A stretch of 6,242 nt of DNA from a virus (Duplodnaviria; Heunggongvirae; Uroviricota; Caudoviricetes): IMG/VR virus record IMGVR_UViG_2703718819_000019. One strand, written 5' to 3'. A program made the translations under genes and the position numbers. This document shows, piece after piece, positions 308-6,242 of this stretch. The first letter of the stretch is position 1, and every line of letters begins with the position of its first letter. Below the pieces are notes generated by a model. The model saw nothing but the letters and a program-made list of their open reading frames with translations. It did not search any database and was not told the origin of the DNA.

Positions 308-838
308 TTATTTATTCAGTCCGGCGTCCTGTTCAAAAGGCTCGACATAAAAACTTTCAGCGCCTTTATTCACCTTGATACCGGCAATGCCTTTCACAGC
401 ATCCGGCTCCGCCAGGACGGCTTCCTTGTTCACTTCCTCTTTCGTGCGGATGAAACGCTCAAGCCCCATACGGCGCAGCATTTCAATCACACCTTCCACA
501 TCACGGCTGACGCTGCATGATGGCGTTCCCAGCCGCCATGACACCGTTCCGGTGGTCAGATTGGCTGTTTTGGTTTTGCCGCCGTTCGTCAGCTCATCAC
601 GGTTGGTTTTGCACCAGTCCTGAATCCCTTTAAAAAGCACTTTGATTTGCTTTTTAAGATTTTCAATCTGCGGCGTATAACGGGCGGTGATTTCTGCCAC
701 TTCGTCATTCATCGCCGTTTCCAGGCGCAGCGCCTCTCGCTGAATATCGCCCAGGGTGCGGATATCGCGGCTGACTTCTTCGCGGGTCTGCGGTGCGGCC
801 TCGGCTACAGCCTTTAATTTTGTAACGCGTTTTGCCAT
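308..838 (-). CDS. gam: Gam-like host-nuclease inhibitor / Ku-like double-strand DNA end-binding protein
   Basis: 176-aa ORF. Segments such as LGDIQREALRLETAMNDEVAEIT, WCKTNRDELTNGGKTKTANLTTGTVSWR and RFIRTKEEVNKEAVLAEP are near-collinear with phage Mu Gam (about 174 aa) as I recall it. Shine-Dalgarno AAGGA lies 8 nt upstream of the ATG (836-838). TAA stop at 308-310. Confidence 0.9.
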   Translation of the reverse strand: MAKRVTKLKAVAEAAPQTREEVSRDIRTLGDIQREALRLETAMNDEVAEITARYTPQIENLKKQIKVLFKGIQDWCKTNRDELTNGGKTKTANLTTGTVSWRLGTPSCSVSRDVEGVIEMLRRMGLERFIRTKEEVNKEAVLAEPDAVKGIAGIKVNKGAESFYVEPFEQDAGLNK

Positions 839-849
839 TTTGTTTTTCC

Positions 850-1143
850 TTATTGCAGTGTGCCTGATGCTTTATGCACGCGGTGGCGTTTAATGATGGC
901 ATCCGCTCCAAAAGACTGTGCAGATGCCTGAAATTCCGCTGAGAGAAACTGAATAATTGCAGGACTGTGATACTGGAGAATACTTGCATAAACGTCACAG
1001 AGTGACGTCGGGCTGTTATCCGTATCACGTTCTGTTTTCACATCCACTCCAATCTTTTCATGCACTTCAACACAGTCATTGCCTGCCAACTTTTCGTCAT
1101 GCGAAACATGATTAAATTCAAAAATAACGCGTACTTTGCTCAT
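850..1143 (-). CDS. small hypothetical protein, paralog 2 of an MSKV..IFEF/Y family
   Basis: The track ORF starts at 1170, but the internal ATG at 1141-1143 (MSKVRVIFEFNHV...) has an upstream AGGGG Shine-Dalgarno-like motif and begins 5 nt after the stop of the preceding ORF. Its N-terminus matches the neighbouring ORF 1148..1420 (MSKVVRIIFEYKEHV) at protein level and about 24 of 27 nt. TAA stop at 850-852. Confidence 0.6.
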   Translation of the reverse strand: MSKVRVIFEFNHVSHDEKLAGNDCVEVHEKIGVDVKTERDTDNSPTSLCDVYASILQYHSPAIIQFLSAEFQASAQSFGADAIIKRHRVHKASGTLQ

Positions 1144-1147
1144 GGAA

Positions 1148-1420
1148 TTACCCCTGCTGATTAAATTCATTACCTTTAATAACCCCGGAACGCATGCTCA
1201 TATCTTTCATGAGCGCACTGGCTTTCATTGCCACAAGTTCAGCAAAGTCTCTGCTTTCCGCGAGCATAACCACCCCAAAAATCATGGCGGGTCCATCACC
1301 TTTCTGCTTTATCCTGGTTGAACGTATGTCCAGACTTACCCCCATGCGCACTGTTCCATCAGGGTTTTTATGGATAACGTGCTCCTTGTATTCGAAAATA
1401 ATGCGTACGACTTTACTCAT
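1148..1420 (-). CDS. small hypothetical protein, paralog 1 of an MSKV..IFEF/Y family
   Basis: 90-aa ORF. ATG at 1418-1420 preceded by GAGGA with a 7-nt spacer. The start overlaps the stop of the upstream ORF as ATGA (1417-1420), indicating translational coupling. Shared N-terminal motif with ORF 850..1143. Confidence 0.6.
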   Translation of the reverse strand: MSKVVRIIFEYKEHVIHKNPDGTVRMGVSLDIRSTRIKQKGDGPAMIFGVVMLAESRDFAELVAMKASALMKDMSMRSGVIKGNEFNQQG

Positions 1421-1698
1421 CCTCTGGTCCTCGTTCTGTTTGGATAACTGACCCGGCGTCTGACCTCACGGCAGAACCGAATCATGGCATTAAAGGCTTC
1501 TTCCTCCGTCACCGCTTCCGGTATCCCCGGAACCAGTAACTGCTCCTGTTCATCACGTCCATGACGCGCCATAACCTCAATCACATGCCGTACCGTGGCA
1601 GGCTTTCCGGCAACTATCGGCAATGCACCTTCCGGCAGGACGTAACCAAACTCAATAAGACCACTCGACCACGCCCATGCAATGAGATTTCGTTTCAC
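1417..1698 (-). CDS. small hypothetical protein (GTG start)
   Basis: 93-aa ORF. The start codon is GTG (reverse complement of 1696-1698), preceded by a strong Shine-Dalgarno GGGAGGTG (plus 1701-1710 reverse-complemented). It lies in the same operon, 1 nt after the stop of the upstream ORF. No recognisable domain by eye. Confidence 0.5.
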   Translation of the reverse strand: MKRNLIAWAWSSGLIEFGYVLPEGALPIVAGKPATVRHVIEVMARHGRDEQEQLLVPGIPEAVTEEEAFNAMIRFCREVRRRVSYPNRTRTRG

Positions 1699-1699
1699 C

Positions 1700-1954
1700 T
1701 CACACCTCCCAGCAAACCGTGCAGCCGCTGATGCGGGTGGCCTTCACACGGCGGCGCAGGCCGTTGGTCTGTATGGTGATTTCAATTTCACCGGTTCCCT
1801 GCACGTTGCCTACCGGCGGCGTGGTTTTCAGTGCAAAACGTTGCGGATAGCGCTTACTGCGTTCCAGTACCGCACCGGCAAGTTCGGTCAGACGGCGCGC
1901 GCTGTTCAGGGAGTCGAATAAATTCATTTTGTTACCGCAGGATTGCATATTCAT
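1700..1954 (-). CDS. small hypothetical protein
   Basis: The track ORF is 1700..1966. I prefer the in-frame ATG at 1952-1954 (MNMQSCGNK...) because GAGGTG sits 6 nt upstream, whereas the ATG at 1966 has no Shine-Dalgarno. The C-terminus carries a CxxC pair (CTVC). TGA stop at 1700-1702. Confidence 0.45.
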   Translation of the reverse strand: MNMQSCGNKMNLFDSLNSARRLTELAGAVLERSKRYPQRFALKTTPPVGNVQGTGEIEITIQTNGLRRRVKATRISGCTVCWEV

Positions 1955-1966
1955 ATAACACCTCAT

Positions 1967-2194
1967 TTAGCTGACTTGTTTCGCACCAACAGAACGGCAT
2001 ATTCCGCTGTAAACGTCTGTCGCACCTTCGCGATCAAGTCCGGCAGATATCACCATTCGTGTGCGGTCATTAAATTCAAAAAGTAAATCGCCACATTCTT
2101 TATTTTCGGCCAGTGAAATCACCTTCACGTTATCGAAATTAACCAGGTAAAAGCGTCCGTAAATATCAGGAATATTAAATACCGCCATAATCAC
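1967..2194 (-). CDS. small hypothetical protein in the position occupied by kil in phage Mu (immediately downstream of B)
   Basis: 75-aa ORF whose ATG overlaps the B stop as ATGA (2191-2194). It contains an internal LLFEFNDRTRMV segment related to the N-termini of ORFs 850..1143 and 1148..1420, and shares an identical 14-nt string with the former (2069-2082 vs 1111-1124). The Kil analogy is positional only; I cannot verify sequence similarity. Confidence 0.5.
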   Translation of the reverse strand: MIMAVFNIPDIYGRFYLVNFDNVKVISLAENKECGDLLFEFNDRTRMVISAGLDREGATDVYSGICRSVGAKQVS

Positions 2195-3123
2195 ACCTGT
2201 GAGAGTAATTCAGGGTTGGTATAAACCTCTTTAAAGGCCGCATTAATATGTTTTTCTGTCAGCGCCGCGCCTTCACCGCTGGCGGTGAGCCACGCCTGGT
2301 TAAGCGTATGTGTCAGAACGCGTAACGCTCCCGGCTTTTCAGCGATAGCCTGCATGACGGCCAGCTCGGCCTCACCACTGATCTCCCACGCCCTGGCAAT
2401 GGCCAGCACATCCGCCTTTTTGGCCTTGCGAAGTTGTTTTGTACGGGCAAGACGGCTGAACAGGCGCGATAAATCATCAAAGGCGCGGCGTCCACCTTTA
2501 AACAATCCGCGCGGGTTACCAATAAGCACCATCCCGATCCCCGTGGCGTCCTGAATTGCCCGGAGTTGCTCCAGACCGTCAATACCAAGATGATCCGCCT
2601 CATCCACAATCACCAGTCCACGCGTTCCCATCAGGCGACGGCGGATGGCGCGGGATAATGCCCCTTTGTTCGCGCGGGTGTAATCAATCCCCAGCGCATC
2701 GGCCAGCTCCAGCAGACACTCCGTGACGCTGGAGTGCGCGGGTGACAGGGTGATCATCCAGGTGTTTGGTTGCTCCTGGCAGTAATTACGGGCAGTGGCC
2801 GTTTTACCCACACCCGGTACGCCCACAATAACGTTAATACAGCCCATCAGACGAACCGCCTGAAACAGTGCGCGCAGCTCCTGGACTGTCTGCGTTTCCA
2901 CAAACTGCGGCGGTTCCGGCAGTGCGCTTTGTTTATTCCAGTTCTCATACCAGGAACGCAGGGAAGCAGCCACAGCAGCGTTATCGCCTTTATATTTTCC
3001 CTTACGGAAAGCCGATAATGTGCCGTCGGAAATTCCCGCCTCTCTGGCGATGGCATACTGCGTCAGTACGCCGCCATCAATAAGTTCATCAATGGTCTTG
3101 ATTACATCGTTAATATCAGTCAT
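2191..3123 (-). CDS. B: MuB-like AAA+ ATPase, transposition target-DNA activator
   Basis: 310-aa ORF. N-terminal HTH-like region (LTQYAIAREAGISDGTLSAF), Walker A GVPGVGKT, Walker B LVIVDEADHL, and overall collinearity with phage Mu B (312 aa) as recalled, including the PEPPQFVETQTV and KKADV..IA.AW segments. Shine-Dalgarno GAGAGG 8 nt upstream of the ATG at 3121-3123. Confidence 0.92.
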   Translation of the reverse strand: MTDINDVIKTIDELIDGGVLTQYAIAREAGISDGTLSAFRKGKYKGDNAAVAASLRSWYENWNKQSALPEPPQFVETQTVQELRALFQAVRLMGCINVIVGVPGVGKTATARNYCQEQPNTWMITLSPAHSSVTECLLELADALGIDYTRANKGALSRAIRRRLMGTRGLVIVDEADHLGIDGLEQLRAIQDATGIGMVLIGNPRGLFKGGRRAFDDLSRLFSRLARTKQLRKAKKADVLAIARAWEISGEAELAVMQAIAEKPGALRVLTHTLNQAWLTASGEGAALTEKHINAAFKEVYTNPELLSQV

Positions 3124-3194: not shown

Positions 3195-5303
3195 TCAGGC
3201 CAGCGGGTCATTTTCTTTTAATTTCGCTTCCAGCAACTGCAATCCCCGCTGGAAATTACGCTCGTATTCTTCATCAGGTTCATCGTCAGCGACCGGTTGC
3301 TGAACGGTCACCGTATTACCCACAGGGCGGTATATGTTTTCCAGCCAGGGCCCCTGTGGCTTGTGCTCCAGCACGTTGACAACCTCATCCTCGGCATCAC
3401 GGATTTTTTCCTCTGCGCGTTTACGCATGCCTTTAAGGCGCTGCTGCTGTTTATGGTATTCCGCGCTGACCGGGAAGGCTTCGCGTTTATTGCCGTCCCA
3501 TACCGCCTCGCAAATCACACTGCCATCCAGGCGACGCACGGTAATTCGCTCAGCATCATGAATGTCATAGCTGATAAGCACCTTACGACCATGCTCGTCA
3601 CGCAGCTCGGGCGCGTAGTAAATATTATTCAGCCAGCGTATTTCACAGCGTCTTACAGGGCGCTCCACCATCGGCCGGAACATATCCCGCAGCTCAACAT
3701 CGGACAGCCATTCAATTTCCGTGTCCTCTTCTGCCAGGCGTTTTTTTCTGAACTCCGCCGGGCTGTAATGCTTCCCGTTCGGCTTCATGGGTAATTCATC
3801 GTGCGGCCGGTTGTTGTACCACTCAACACCATCACGAATGGCATCAATCAGTTCAGACCAGGACGGTAAATCACGCATCGCTGACTGCTGCCGGGCGTTC
3901 AGCCGCTTGCCCTGTTGCAGGGCAGTGAATGCCGAGCGTAAATCGCGGTTGGTTTTGCGTAACGTCTCGCGATCTGCACCTTTCCCGAAATAGGTGCGGT
4001 ATCTGCGGGCTATGCGCATCGGTAATGTGCGGTTAAGCCGTTCGATAATGCCCCGTCCCTGCGGATTACCGGCAATCCCGGTCGGGTGATTAATCCCCAG
4101 TCGCGGTAGTATCCCCACAATCTCCTTATCCAGGATGTCGGCGGTTTCCCCGGAGCCATTATCCGAGTAATACAGAAACGGTTTGCCGTGATGGCGAATG
4201 CCGTGCTGTATAGCACCGGCTACGGCGAAAACATTTTCAGCCAGGTCAAGGCTCCAGCCCACCACAAAGCGTGTACCGCCATCGATAACAAAGGTTACTT
4301 CCGGTGCAAATGGCCGCCCGTGAACCGGGTGCCTGCATTTCAGCTTCATGCCGTGACCGTCACCAATCCAGACATAGTTCACCGGCATTCTGGACCAGTC
4401 GCGGCGCGTGAATCCCTCAAGCTGGCGGTATTCACTGCCGGTCACCCGGCCTTTTTGTTTCACCACTTCCGGCAGTTTCTTCATTGCGCGGCGAATGGTG
4501 TCATAAGACGGCATGATATCGAGCATATAAGGCTCATCAGCGTGCCGGTGCTGCCATTCAGCGACAAAATCCTCGTAAGCCTCGGTCATTGGTCGGCCGT
4601 TTGACTGGCGATACTGCGCCAGAAATTCGGGCAGCCAGTTAATATCTTCGGCTTTTATTTCCTGGCGCTTACCCGGTGCCAGTAAAAGCAGGCGTTCAGC
4701 GGCGTTCTGCGCCTTGTTAAAGGCCGCAATCCAGCGTTTCAGCGTGATTTCACTTAACGCGCGGCTGTTTCCCTTTTTGGCGTTCGCCGTCTCAACCATT
4801 GCCACAATGCGCTCGTCCAGCTGCGAACGTGCCAGGTTGTCAACGATAAACCGGATAGCCTTCGCACAGCTGAAACCAGGTTGTTGCGCGACTTTCAGAA
4901 CTTCGCTGACGATCGCGATTCGTGCATCAGCCACCTGGCGCTGGTTTTCAGTCAGGGCATTGAGGCGTTCGACCATCAGTTGTGGTGATCCGCGATATGC
5001 CTCCACCGCATCAACCACGGCAGGTGAGCGTCTGGCCTTTGTCACCACCGGAGCCGGTGATTCATCGGCTTTTTGCGTCATCAGTTGCAGGGCGTAGCGT
5101 TCACGTACTGCCTGCTGAACAGTTAAAGGCAAAGCACCTATTTCACACTCTAAAACTTTCCCTTTTACCCCTGGTTTTAGCCGCGTTTTCCACGCCTCCC
5201 TCTTTGCTTTTTTGTGCAGACCTGCCAAAGAACTAGGTAGGTCACTGAATGAAATCAATTCAGTCATTGCAACCCACATATTTCCTCCGCGCACGTCGTT
5301 CAT
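3195..5303 (-). CDS. A: MuA-like DDE transposase
   Basis: 702-aa ORF. N-terminal winged-helix-like motif DLPSSLAGLHKKAKREAWKTR (the enhancer/operator-binding domain in MuA). Central DDE candidates in WIGDGHG, YYSDNGSGE and GRGIIERLNRT. Size and position match Mu A. The true start is probably the ATG at 5277-5279 (MWVAMTEL...), which has GGAGGA immediately upstream; the track start at 5303 has no Shine-Dalgarno. TGA stop at 3195-3197. Confidence 0.93.
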   Translation of the reverse strand: MNDVRGGNMWVAMTELISFSDLPSSLAGLHKKAKREAWKTRLKPGVKGKVLECEIGALPLTVQQAVRERYALQLMTQKADESPAPVVTKARRSPAVVDAVEAYRGSPQLMVERLNALTENQRQVADARIAIVSEVLKVAQQPGFSCAKAIRFIVDNLARSQLDERIVAMVETANAKKGNSRALSEITLKRWIAAFNKAQNAAERLLLLAPGKRQEIKAEDINWLPEFLAQYRQSNGRPMTEAYEDFVAEWQHRHADEPYMLDIMPSYDTIRRAMKKLPEVVKQKGRVTGSEYRQLEGFTRRDWSRMPVNYVWIGDGHGMKLKCRHPVHGRPFAPEVTFVIDGGTRFVVGWSLDLAENVFAVAGAIQHGIRHHGKPFLYYSDNGSGETADILDKEIVGILPRLGINHPTGIAGNPQGRGIIERLNRTLPMRIARRYRTYFGKGADRETLRKTNRDLRSAFTALQQGKRLNARQQSAMRDLPSWSELIDAIRDGVEWYNNRPHDELPMKPNGKHYSPAEFRKKRLAEEDTEIEWLSDVELRDMFRPMVERPVRRCEIRWLNNIYYAPELRDEHGRKVLISYDIHDAERITVRRLDGSVICEAVWDGNKREAFPVSAEYHKQQQRLKGMRKRAEEKIRDAEDEVVNVLEHKPQGPWLENIYRPVGNTVTVQQPVADDEPDEEYERNFQRGLQLLEAKLKENDPLA

Positions 5304-5505
5304 ATCTAGTAGGCCAAATAACTTGCGGCTCTACACCTATAGCCCTAGCAATAATCTTTTCACCTTTAGGGTAGGGAACTCGCAAAGCATTACCCAAAGT
5401 CCTAGGCTGCAAATTATTTTCCCTTGATAAACGTGACAAATTGGTATCGCGTTTTTCTAAGGCTGCCTTTATATCGGCGGAAGACCAATCTTCAATAAGA
5501 CTCAC
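5260..5505 (-). CDS. ner: Ner-like DNA-binding transcriptional regulator (Ner/Nlp family)
   Basis: 81-aa ORF. The PYPKGEKIIARAIGVEPQVIWPTRY segment matches the conserved core of Mu Ner and E. coli Nlp (..WPKGE.IIA.ALG..P..IWPSRY). GTG start at 5503-5505 preceded by AGGGGG with a 5-nt spacer. It is the first gene of the early operon and its 3' end overlaps the 5' end of A. Confidence 0.85.
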   Translation of the reverse strand: MSLIEDWSSADIKAALEKRDTNLSRLSRENNLQPRTLGNALRVPYPKGEKIIARAIGVEPQVIWPTRYERRARRKYVGCND

Positions 5506-5540
5506 AATGGCCCCCTGTGTACTTTCTATGGCAAACTTTA

Positions 5541-5579
5541 TTACTCATGTGTGCTACTCTATTGAGTTACTCACTAGTG
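5541..5579. repeat. three tandem 13-bp direct repeats (TTACTCATGTGTG / CTACTCTATTGAG / TTACTCACTAGTG), candidate operator or iteron-like sites
   Basis: Read directly from the sequence: the TACTC core recurs at 5542, 5555 and 5568, an exact 13-bp phase, and 8 of 13 positions are invariant (yTACTCwnnnGnG). A fourth TTACTC lies at 5644-5649. Confidence 0.5.
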
Positions 5580-5589
5580 TATGTTTGAT

Positions 5590-5618
5590 ATATTAGATAT
5601 TAACTAAGTAAATATCAA
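5590..5618 (-). promoter_or_regulatory. candidate early promoter (Pe-like) for the ner-A-B operon
   Basis: On the minus strand, -35 TTGATA (plus 5613-5618), a 17-nt spacer and -10 TAATAT (plus 5590-5595), about 80 nt upstream of the ner GTG. The -35 hexamer overlaps the IHF consensus match, so the two assignments compete. Confidence 0.35.
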
Positions 5619-5625
5619 CCGGTTA
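5613..5625 (+). promoter_or_regulatory. candidate IHF binding site
   Basis: TATCAACCGGTTA matches the IHF core consensus WATCAANNNNTTR at every defined position, with an AT-rich tract immediately 5'. In Mu, IHF binds within the operator region and stimulates Pe (established knowledge). Confidence 0.4.
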
Positions 5626-5735
5626 ATTTCAAATTCCTTAGATTTACTCGATATCTATTTGTTTTATATTAGATTATTTTTGAAATAAACCACAGAAGAG
5701 ATATGAACAAAAGTTAATATCAAATGGAGTTTGAT

Positions 5736-6242
5736 ATGATCCTTGACCAAGAATGGATCCTTGCCAGTGACTTGTTGGGGGTTGGAGGTCTTCCTTCATC
5801 TCTGGCTGGGCTTCATAAACGAGCAAAAAATGAAGGATGGGAAAAACGTTCGGTAACTACACCCGGTATCAGAGGGAGAGCATTTGCCTACCGTTTAAGC
5901 GACTTACCTGCACATGTAGTTTCCATCATTACAGGTAGTGCAGAAATAAAACACCAAGCCCCTAAAAAGAACGGTGGCAATAGCGAGTTGCTCGAACTCA
6001 TCGACACCTTGAACCAAGAAGAGCAAGAATTAGTTATTTACACCTTGAGAAGGAAAGGGGTAGAAAAATTGCTGGAATTCTGCAATCAAGAGAATCAAGA
6101 GCTGATCGCTTTAACAGGTATTCGACGCCTGGCAGCATTGAGCCTCAATAATTTATCAGATCAAAAGGTTAGAGAGATTTTCGAGGGAGATGAAACCAAG
6201 GATCATCATTTCAATCTAACCCATAAAGAAGCCAAAGCGTAA
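5736..6242 (+). CDS. c: Mu repressor c-like protein (Rep/CI of transposable phages)
   Basis: The track ORF is 5724..6242. GGAG at 5726-5729 sits 6 nt before the ATG at 5736, so 5736 is the more likely start. The N-terminal motif GLPSSLAGLHKRAKNEGWEKR parallels the transposase N-terminus (DLPSSLAGLHKKAKREAWKTR), the known Mu Rep/MuA shared DNA-binding domain. Divergent orientation from ner. TAA stop at 6240-6242. Confidence 0.8.
   Translation: MILDQEWILASDLLGVGGLPSSLAGLHKRAKNEGWEKRSVTTPGIRGRAFAYRLSDLPAHVVSIITGSAEIKHQAPKKNGGNSELLELIDTLNQEEQELVIYTLRRKGVEKLLEFCNQENQELIALTGIRRLAALSLNNLSDQKVREIFEGDETKDHHFNLTHKEAKA

Follow-up and report, generated by a model that had tools for sequence, protein, structure and literature searches.

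The interval between kil and gam of bacteriophage Mu—the "semi-essential early region"—carries non-essential host-interaction functions. In the mosaic "semi-essential early" regions of Mu-like and lambdoid phages, small non-essential genes are packed beside kil and gam, their presence or absence varies, and their alleles are replaced between short conserved sequences at the gene ends. Here, we describe such a locus in a 6.2 kb window—the whole stretch of 6,242 nucleotides (nt) of IMG/VR virus record IMGVR_UViG_2703718819_000019 that was analyzed—which represents the left (early) end of an Escherichia coli Mu-like prophage with its early operon on the minus strand. The locus comprises two adjacent small open reading frames (ORFs), namely ORF A (850–1143, minus strand, 97 amino acids (aa)), which lies directly upstream of gam, and ORF B (1148–1420, minus strand, 90 aa). 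It is no different in kind from those mosaic regions: the A/B locus is ordinary phage accessory-gene duplication and mosaicism.

On the protein level, both ORFs have full-length PHROG matches, A to phrog_2230 (E 5e-38) and B to phrog_4107 (E 6e-60). Both are catalogued as phage/prophage proteins of "unknown function" and are treated as unrelated by PHROGs. Mu gp7 (E6), an 87-aa protein encoded in the Mu early region between B and gam of that phage, is similar in size and operon place. Its relatives bear an invariant N-terminus MAKVIIEIKN followed by a more variable body, and gp7 weakly matches phrog_2230 (E 0.009, positions 1–78 to positions 1–80 of the model). Unlike A, it is not adjacent to gam in Mu. 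Between gp7 (phrog_10252) and A or B, BLASTP gave no match and hhalign, with a 15-sequence E6 profile, gave probabilities of 0.1–2.3%; homology of gp7 to the A family is unproven.

A further likeness concerns the internal-protein locus of phage T4. The T4 internal proteins are diverse small proteins that counter host defence and have only a capsid-targeting sequence of ~10 residues in common (PMC3012670). Hence, a constant N-terminal decapeptide and highly diverse small proteins encoded in tandem at a variable locus are features of both systems. The T4 proteins, however, are packaged into the head, lose their tag to the prohead protease, and have unrelated bodies, whereas A and B are early-operon genes with bodies that appear distantly homologous and an N-terminus that is predicted to be a structural strand. 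The early-operon place, the predicted strand role, and the homologous bodies argue against the T4 mechanism here, and we take the likeness as a resemblance only.

A first reading of the window by a model (hereafter the original prediction) had grouped A and B with a third small ORF, C (1967–2194, minus strand), into one FEF/FEY-motif family with traces of duplication in the DNA. All strings and coordinates on which it drew are present in the window. The explanation that we favor—with a probability of roughly 0.7—is that A and B are divergent members of one slot family, arisen by tandem duplication or unequal crossover and probably serving an accessory role, and that C is unrelated to them.

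The shared start of ORFs A and B

Read on the minus strand, A begins with MSKVRVIFEFNH... and B with MSKVVRIIFEYKEH.... The first 10 codons of A (MSKVRVIFEF, 1114–1143) and the first 11 codons of B (MSKVVRIIFEY, 1388–1420) align as ATGAGCAAA---GTACGCGTTATTTTTGAAT over ATGAGTAAAGTCGTACGCATTATTTTCGAAT, which corresponds to three mismatches and one 3-nt indel across ~28–31 nt. This DNA alignment scores 32 compared with 10.8 ± 2.0 in shuffled sequences, none of which reaches it (0/2000). On the protein level, BLASTP aligns A with B at an E of 0.002 over 41 residues, and the Smith–Waterman score of 42—compared with 23.7 ± 4.3—is reached by 9 of 2000 shuffles. The match, which sits at both start codons, is beyond chance, and the view of A and B as related tandem genes of a phage early region is supported.

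The DNA similarity is confined to this short segment: beyond the first ~31 nt, none was found between A and B, either in the 70 nt upstream or in the gene bodies. The identity of 24/27 nt apart from a 3-nt indel, which had been put forward as a nucleotide-level trace of duplication, is indeed there. From the common amino acids and the local codon usage alone, 20.0 ± 1.8 identical nt are expected (P = 0.02). As the nucleotide identity is only mildly above this amino-acid expectation, the supposed trace in the DNA follows mostly from the conservation of the protein.

Further events on the DNA level were considered and rejected. A duplication unit reaching upstream of the start codon is at odds with the dissimilar upstream regions in the window (score 11, reached by 1573/2000 shuffles), and a recent gene conversion between both starts finds no support in an identity only slightly above the amino-acid expectation. 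Concerted evolution of the starts left no signal either, with an identity of 25.1 for own pairs and 24.8 for cross pairs (of 30 nt)—the 5′ haplotypes being too invariant for such a signal to be readable. The proposal of a recent duplication or gene conversion thus finds a synonymous similarity only slightly above expectation and no sign of concerted evolution, which do not demonstrate it.

A slot family beside gam

Word-indexed searches with A or B alone retrieve only E. coli proteins with at least ~70% identity. An exhaustive hidden Markov model search with the A alignment reaches much further, to 93–98-aa proteins at 23–29% identity, and its second round collected 134 relatives, the majority of them from Salmonella enterica and others from Serratia, Klebsiella oxytoca, and E. 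coli. A scan of species-representative genomes with the Salmonella-type alignment found Citrobacter braakii only. The motif family, for which a search in other prophages had been proposed, does exist there, with these 134 relatives plus Citrobacter braakii. A itself aligns with phrog_2230 from residue 3 to 97, corresponding to model positions 1–88/89.

The subfamilies are less than 50% identical to each other (some bodies less than 30%), and the most distant ones give no pairwise BLASTP alignment to A. Their N-termini are far more uniform. The start MSNKVQVIFTFE is found in 52 of the 103 full-length members and MSNKVQVIFTAE in 25 of them, the 103 members carry MSNKVQVIFT[FA]E or close variants, and the N-terminal consensus reads MS(N)KV(Q/R)VIF(T/E)(F/A/Y)E. 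Among nine representatives at 70% identity, the column conservation amounts to 0.7–0.9 at positions 1–12 and mostly to 0.2–0.5 elsewhere, with scaffold positions GP..Y/F.A/G..IL...P.I within the variable body. The mobile "small domain" of the original prediction is hence better described as the conserved N-terminal strand of a whole family of ~90–97 aa, of which B appears to be a full-length member.

The non-E. coli loci that were read show the order MuB–C–(137-aa gene)–Kil–D–X–Gam or DUF3164, where X is the family gene. Wherever D is present in these loci, its end overlaps the start of X. The loci consulted for members named after Salmonella, Klebsiella, or Serratia showed a single X, and the Citrobacter braakii locus (n = 1) a single motif-bearing ORF. 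The subfamilies are single and all in one slot, and therefore behave as alleles of one locus. In the window, the order is D–B–A–Gam. A and B thus occupy the family slot between gene D (1417–1698, minus strand, 93 aa; phrog_1518, labelled "host nuclease inhibitor") and gam (308–838, minus strand; PF07352), which follows directly downstream of A. As a side observation, three Salmonella and Klebsiella loci (L006, L015, L016) encode a 212-aa DUF3164 protein in place of gam, and which of the two is present bears no relation to the allele type of the family gene upstream.

The strongly conserved N-terminus might alternatively be a separable module—a targeting, processing, or docking tag, or an element of translation initiation or coupling—placed on interchangeable effector bodies. 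In every subfamily, the first 10–12 residues are far more conserved than the rest, the first 30 nt of A are invariant across allele classes whose bodies show a synonymous divergence (dS) of ~0.85, and the starts are coupled to the upstream gene via an ATGA overlap; the T4 internal proteins set a precedent (PMC3012670). We nevertheless consider a separable module improbable. The genes reside in the early operon and not among head genes, AlphaFold2 (AF2) places residues 4–20 in a hairpin-paired strand, and the bodies appear homologous rather than unrelated. In addition, Rfam gave no match on the conserved segments, promoter and terminator signals are not in excess there, and the invariant 30 nt are equally explained as a recombination boundary.

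The membership of B in the family can only be appreciated with deep profiles. When the broad family profile is compared with B at full length, hhalign yields a probability of 86–92% over 71–76 columns. For a body-only test, the first 12–13 positions of the family and the first 11 positions of B were removed. Columns 15–68 of the whole family then align with positions 13–65 of B, collinearly and in register, with a probability of 71%, a score of 28.7, and an E of 3.6e-5; for the MSNKVQVIFTAE (Salmonella) subfamily, these values are 87%, 34.4, and 3.7e-6. Column permutations of the B profile score 10–11 ± 2.3 with maxima of 20.8 and 26.5, so that 0/200 reach the score. The reversed profile scores 8–10, and the neighbor families C, D, Kil, and Mu E6 score 7–15 against A or B, at probabilities of 1.1% or less. 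AF2 models from shallow alignments (pLDDT of 59 for A and 69 for B) show a long N-terminal β-hairpin in the same register, with strands 4–20 and 24–39 in A, strands 4–18 and 24–37 in B, and a helix afterwards. We conclude with moderate confidence, on profile evidence, that B belongs to the A family over its full length, although it has diverged to an extreme degree.

Several points weigh against this reading. Shallow, E. coli-only profiles give an A/B probability of 79%, which drops to 0.2% once the first 11 residues are taken away—at shallow depth, all of the signal is therefore N-terminal. The residual pairwise similarity of the two proteins is not significant (292/2000 shuffles), the homology of the bodies is built on profile comparison at moderate probability (71–92%), and PHROGs places A and B in separate families. 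After the hairpin, the AF2 models, which are of low-to-moderate confidence, differ by a helix at 48–58 in A and a strand at 45–54 in B. Also, a chimeric gene of E. coli STEC299, described below, is ambiguous in its direction and could reflect either the loss of B or an ancestral state.

Some of these points would equally fit a more limited event, in which only the first ~10 codons were duplicated and B is a chimera with a foreign or de novo body behind the start and N-terminal strand of A. The end of the DNA similarity after ~31 nt, the loss of all signal from narrow profiles without the N-terminus, the different predicted secondary structures after the hairpin, and the separate PHROGs speak for such a copy, as does the existence of fusions at the locus (P0022, P0146). 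Yet the bodies are collinear and in register in broad profiles (15–68 with 13–65, 0/200 column shuffles) and score far above unrelated neighbor families, and A and B are of similar length and, in the AF2 models, agree in the hairpin register. A copy of the start alone thus seems unlikely. With B as a divergent full-length member, two "unknown function" PHROGs, phrog_2230 and phrog_4107, would be linked into one family—a new, if modest, link—and a conserved, allele-rich slot beside gam in Mu-like prophages is defined.

Probable duplication, allele exchange, and possible function

B is known only from E. coli-type prophages, and both A and B are found in 227 of 233 E. coli records. A begins 4 nt behind the stop of B in all 37 loci in which both genes are intact, namely the window, five loci from E. 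coli genomes, and 31 of the 40 IMG/VR loci that contain B. The remaining IMG/VR loci also contain A (some in frameshifted form), the exception being a locus whose sequence breaks off no more than 20 nt from the B match. The start of B overlaps the stop of D (ATGA). B keeps the last codons of D, this overlap, and a "long" N-terminus of the same length as in Salmonella, so that, of the two copies of the family N-terminus, the one in its first 11 codons is still joined to D in the ancestral way. The upstream context of A, on the other hand, is new and consists of the 3′ end of B. B at the D junction with A behind it is the arrangement expected from a tandem duplication of the slot.

The slot holds one gene outside E. 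coli and two in the E. coli lineage, with B at the ancestral D junction followed by A. We infer that the second gene originated from a tandem duplication or from unequal crossover between prophages with different slot alleles. The B copy would then have diverged asymmetrically, to an extent that its relationship is now visible to profiles only. The ~30 nt common to both starts would be kept mainly by selection on the protein. Being conserved, this patch might also serve as a short homology site for allele exchange, and it may be a site at which B is lost or gained, as the B-type start and A body of STEC299 would illustrate.

In STEC299, a single gene follows D. Its upstream D junction is the same as before B of the window (3/45 nt differ); this upstream sequence together with ATGAGTAAAATCGTACGC is of B type and then runs into an A body. 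Possibly, B was deleted here when recombination took place inside the patch that both starts share; alternatively, the single copy may be ancestral. CI5 bears a single A-type gene behind a remnant of D, and P0022 is a fusion B(1–49)::A(79–97).

Several minor variants of the locus were noted as well. Upstream of A in CI5 (L004, 1805–1878), the sequence is intermediate between the 3′ ends of D and B (GTTATTAA..AATGA..CA.CAGG). Its local score against window positions 1144–1213 is 19, which is reached by 38/2000 shuffles and not significant after multiple testing; as a sequence pattern, it hints that the duplicated unit might once have included the end of D. D is cut to a ~70-nt remnant in CI5 and SCU-106 (L005). 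P0146 (Salmonella enterica, 143 aa) is a frameshifted D remnant (MKSTITAYCW...) fused to a complete family member (MSNKVQVIFTAE...) and represents another rearrangement at the D/X junction. In FORC_029 (L011, 2069–2371), the B stop is changed from TAA to GAA, so that B is annotated with 100 aa and extends 26 nt into A; P0027, likewise of 100 aa, might represent this variant too. In 23CRST049 (L013, 2173–3711), the IS66-family element ISEc22 lies directly upstream of A in place of B. There, 41 nt of the B 3′ end remain, and the annotated stretch stops inside ISEc22. STEC299 (L003) and SCU-106 carry an extra 139-aa gene between C and Kil, whose length equals that of Mu E7 (the length alone was compared).

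At the B/A junction itself, the 12-mer TGATTAAATTCA at 1158–1169 (plus strand), which encodes NEFNQ at the 3′ end of B, is repeated at 1109–1120 in the 5′ end of A. Both copies are 49 nt apart and in frame in their genes, with the C-terminus of B reading ..GVIKGNEFNQ and the N-terminus of A reading ..RVIFEFNH. A match of at least 11 nt occurs in 61/3000 codon shuffles, which is borderline, and the 12-mer could be either a relic of the duplication junction or a chance match.

The extent of allele exchange was assessed by comparing six other E. coli prophages with the window. Gam, D, Kil, and MuB are 88–100% identical on the protein level, and 98–100% identical in the prophages closest to the window. 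A and B are among the most variable genes of the early region. The allele classes of A share 56–59% aa identity at a dS of 0.84–1.13, those of B 80% at a dS of 0.35, and those of C 74–78% at a dS of 0.44–0.72. The ratio of nonsynonymous to synonymous divergence (dN/dS) between allele classes amounts to 0.16–0.36 for A, B, and C, compared with 0.04–0.12 for Gam and MuB. Positive selection was considered and rejected, as pairwise dN/dS values of A, B, and C are 0.25–0.5 and never exceed 1, which fits relaxed or diversified alleles.

In a 30-nt identity profile, the allele block of A is bounded by its stop and by its first ~11 codons, the latter forming the left boundary of the allele mosaic. These first codons are 93–96% identical, whereas the body of A falls to 43–83% in other alleles. 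Across 40 loci, the first 30 nt of A occur in two haplotypes only. Moreover, all four combinations of B classes and A classes exist. On these sequence comparisons, the diversity of A, B, and C is one of old allele classes, reshuffled by recombination at short conserved patches. The rapid diversification in an arms race with the host that had been suggested is not demonstrated by these comparisons, which show old alleles being exchanged, with dN/dS at ~0.25–0.36. The locus provides a small and clean example of how alleles come to be exchanged by crossover within a conserved N-terminal coding patch, through which gene copies might also be gained or lost.

Known families offer little guidance on function. 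Pfam, NCBIfam, PADLOC models, and PDB sequences gave no match for A or B, and Foldseek against viral models gave nothing significant, the fold matches being generic only. Both proteins have a size of ~10 kDa, with GRAVY values of −0.28 (A) and −0.15 (B) and pI values of 6.0 (A) and 9.7 (B), and their composition is consistent with soluble proteins. A and B are dispensable in some prophages. The position between kil and gam, this dispensability, and the allele richness suggest that the proteins act in an accessory capacity, most likely by binding a partner from the host or the phage at an early stage of lytic growth. A and B might hence be non-essential accessory proteins of early lytic development, whose variable body would set the specificity and whose constant first strand would form part of the fold core as the first strand of the N-terminal β-hairpin.

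A more specific proposal—that the slot is a polymorphic effector locus, in which the decapeptide is a docking, targeting, or processing module and the diverged bodies each neutralize a different host factor or defence, with B and A stacked in E. coli—appears quite unlikely to us and draws on the T4 resemblance discussed above. Should the variable bodies of the slot family turn out to act against host defences or repair functions, the slot would offer a ready panel of natural variants.

ORF C and the wider early operon

ORF C lies directly after MuB and belongs to phrog_3375; its PGAP start is at 2188, which yields a protein of 73 aa. It contains LLFEFNDRTRMV, and the 14-mer ATTAAATTCAAAAA at 2069–2082 (plus strand), which encodes L-FEFN in C, is repeated at 1111–1124 (plus strand), where it encodes I-FEFN in A. 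This identity, in frame in both genes, speaks for the original view, in which duplication or gene conversion had spread a FEF/FEY motif through A, B, and C as one family. The codon triplet GAA-TTT-AAT points the same way: A, C, and B (in its C-terminal NEFNQ) all contain it in frame, and such sharing occurs in 7/3000 codon shuffles for the five small genes; for all nine genes, though, the count rises to 265/3000.

The 14-mer is the longest exact direct repeat of the window. A direct repeat of at least 14 nt arises in 23/300 dinucleotide shuffles of the window and in 0/300 shuffles of 850–2194, a region picked after the fact. We thus rejected it as a trace of duplication or conversion: it is not significant on the level of the window, and FEFN is not kept in relatives of C. 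Where the window C reads GDLLFEFND, its Salmonella-type relatives read GDLIILFTD, GDLIIFFTD, or GDLIITFTD. The 14-mer is located inside a 30-nt island of C (2070–2099, encoding ECGDLLFEFN) that is conserved between divergent segments.

The comparison of whole sequences gives the same picture. BLASTP yields an E of 0.13 for A/C and no match for B/C, Smith–Waterman shuffles reach the A/C and B/C scores 429/2000 and 210/2000 times, and hhalign of C against the A and B profiles gives a probability of 0.1–0.2%. Of the alignments compared with chance, those of the A and B starts exceed it, and those of A/C and B/C are within it. With C in a different PHROG from A and B, its inclusion as a third family member is highly improbable. 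By these comparisons, C is a small early gene with no relation to A and B, and we judge both its FEFN and the 14-mer to be coincidental.

Upstream of C, the minus-strand operon comprises ner (5260–5505), MuA (3195–5303), and a MuB-type AAA+ transposition protein (2191–3123; PF09077/AAA_22), and a repressor-like gene lies on the plus strand (5724–6242). Downstream of C follows a Kil-like gene (1700–1966, minus strand; phrog_2679, PGAP start 1954), which weakly resembles Mu Kil in the C-terminal half of the latter (E 7e-5) and is the second gene after MuB here, whereas kil is the first in Mu. The five small ORFs—C, the Kil-like gene, D, B, and A—belong to five different PHROGs. BLASTP of the window proteins against the Mu proteins gave matches for Kil and Gam only.

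The segment 840–2200 is found in 232 of 5426 complete E. coli genomes (~4%) at 80–99.6% identity, and its carriers include O157:H7 and other Shiga-toxin-producing strains. The PGAP annotation of these genomes contains the same five small coding sequences, all as "hypothetical protein". Among deposited phages, only two Shiga-toxin (Stx) phages with an "inserted Mu-like phage" match this segment. Both records match the window only up to position 5117 (96.7% and 94.7% identity), and a megablast "near" search found no match for window positions 5118–6242, which hold the MuA N-terminal region, ner, and the repressor. The end of the match at 5117 suggests, on the level of sequence, a different immunity module in the Stx-phage records—possibly a heteroimmune swap like that between Mu and D108.

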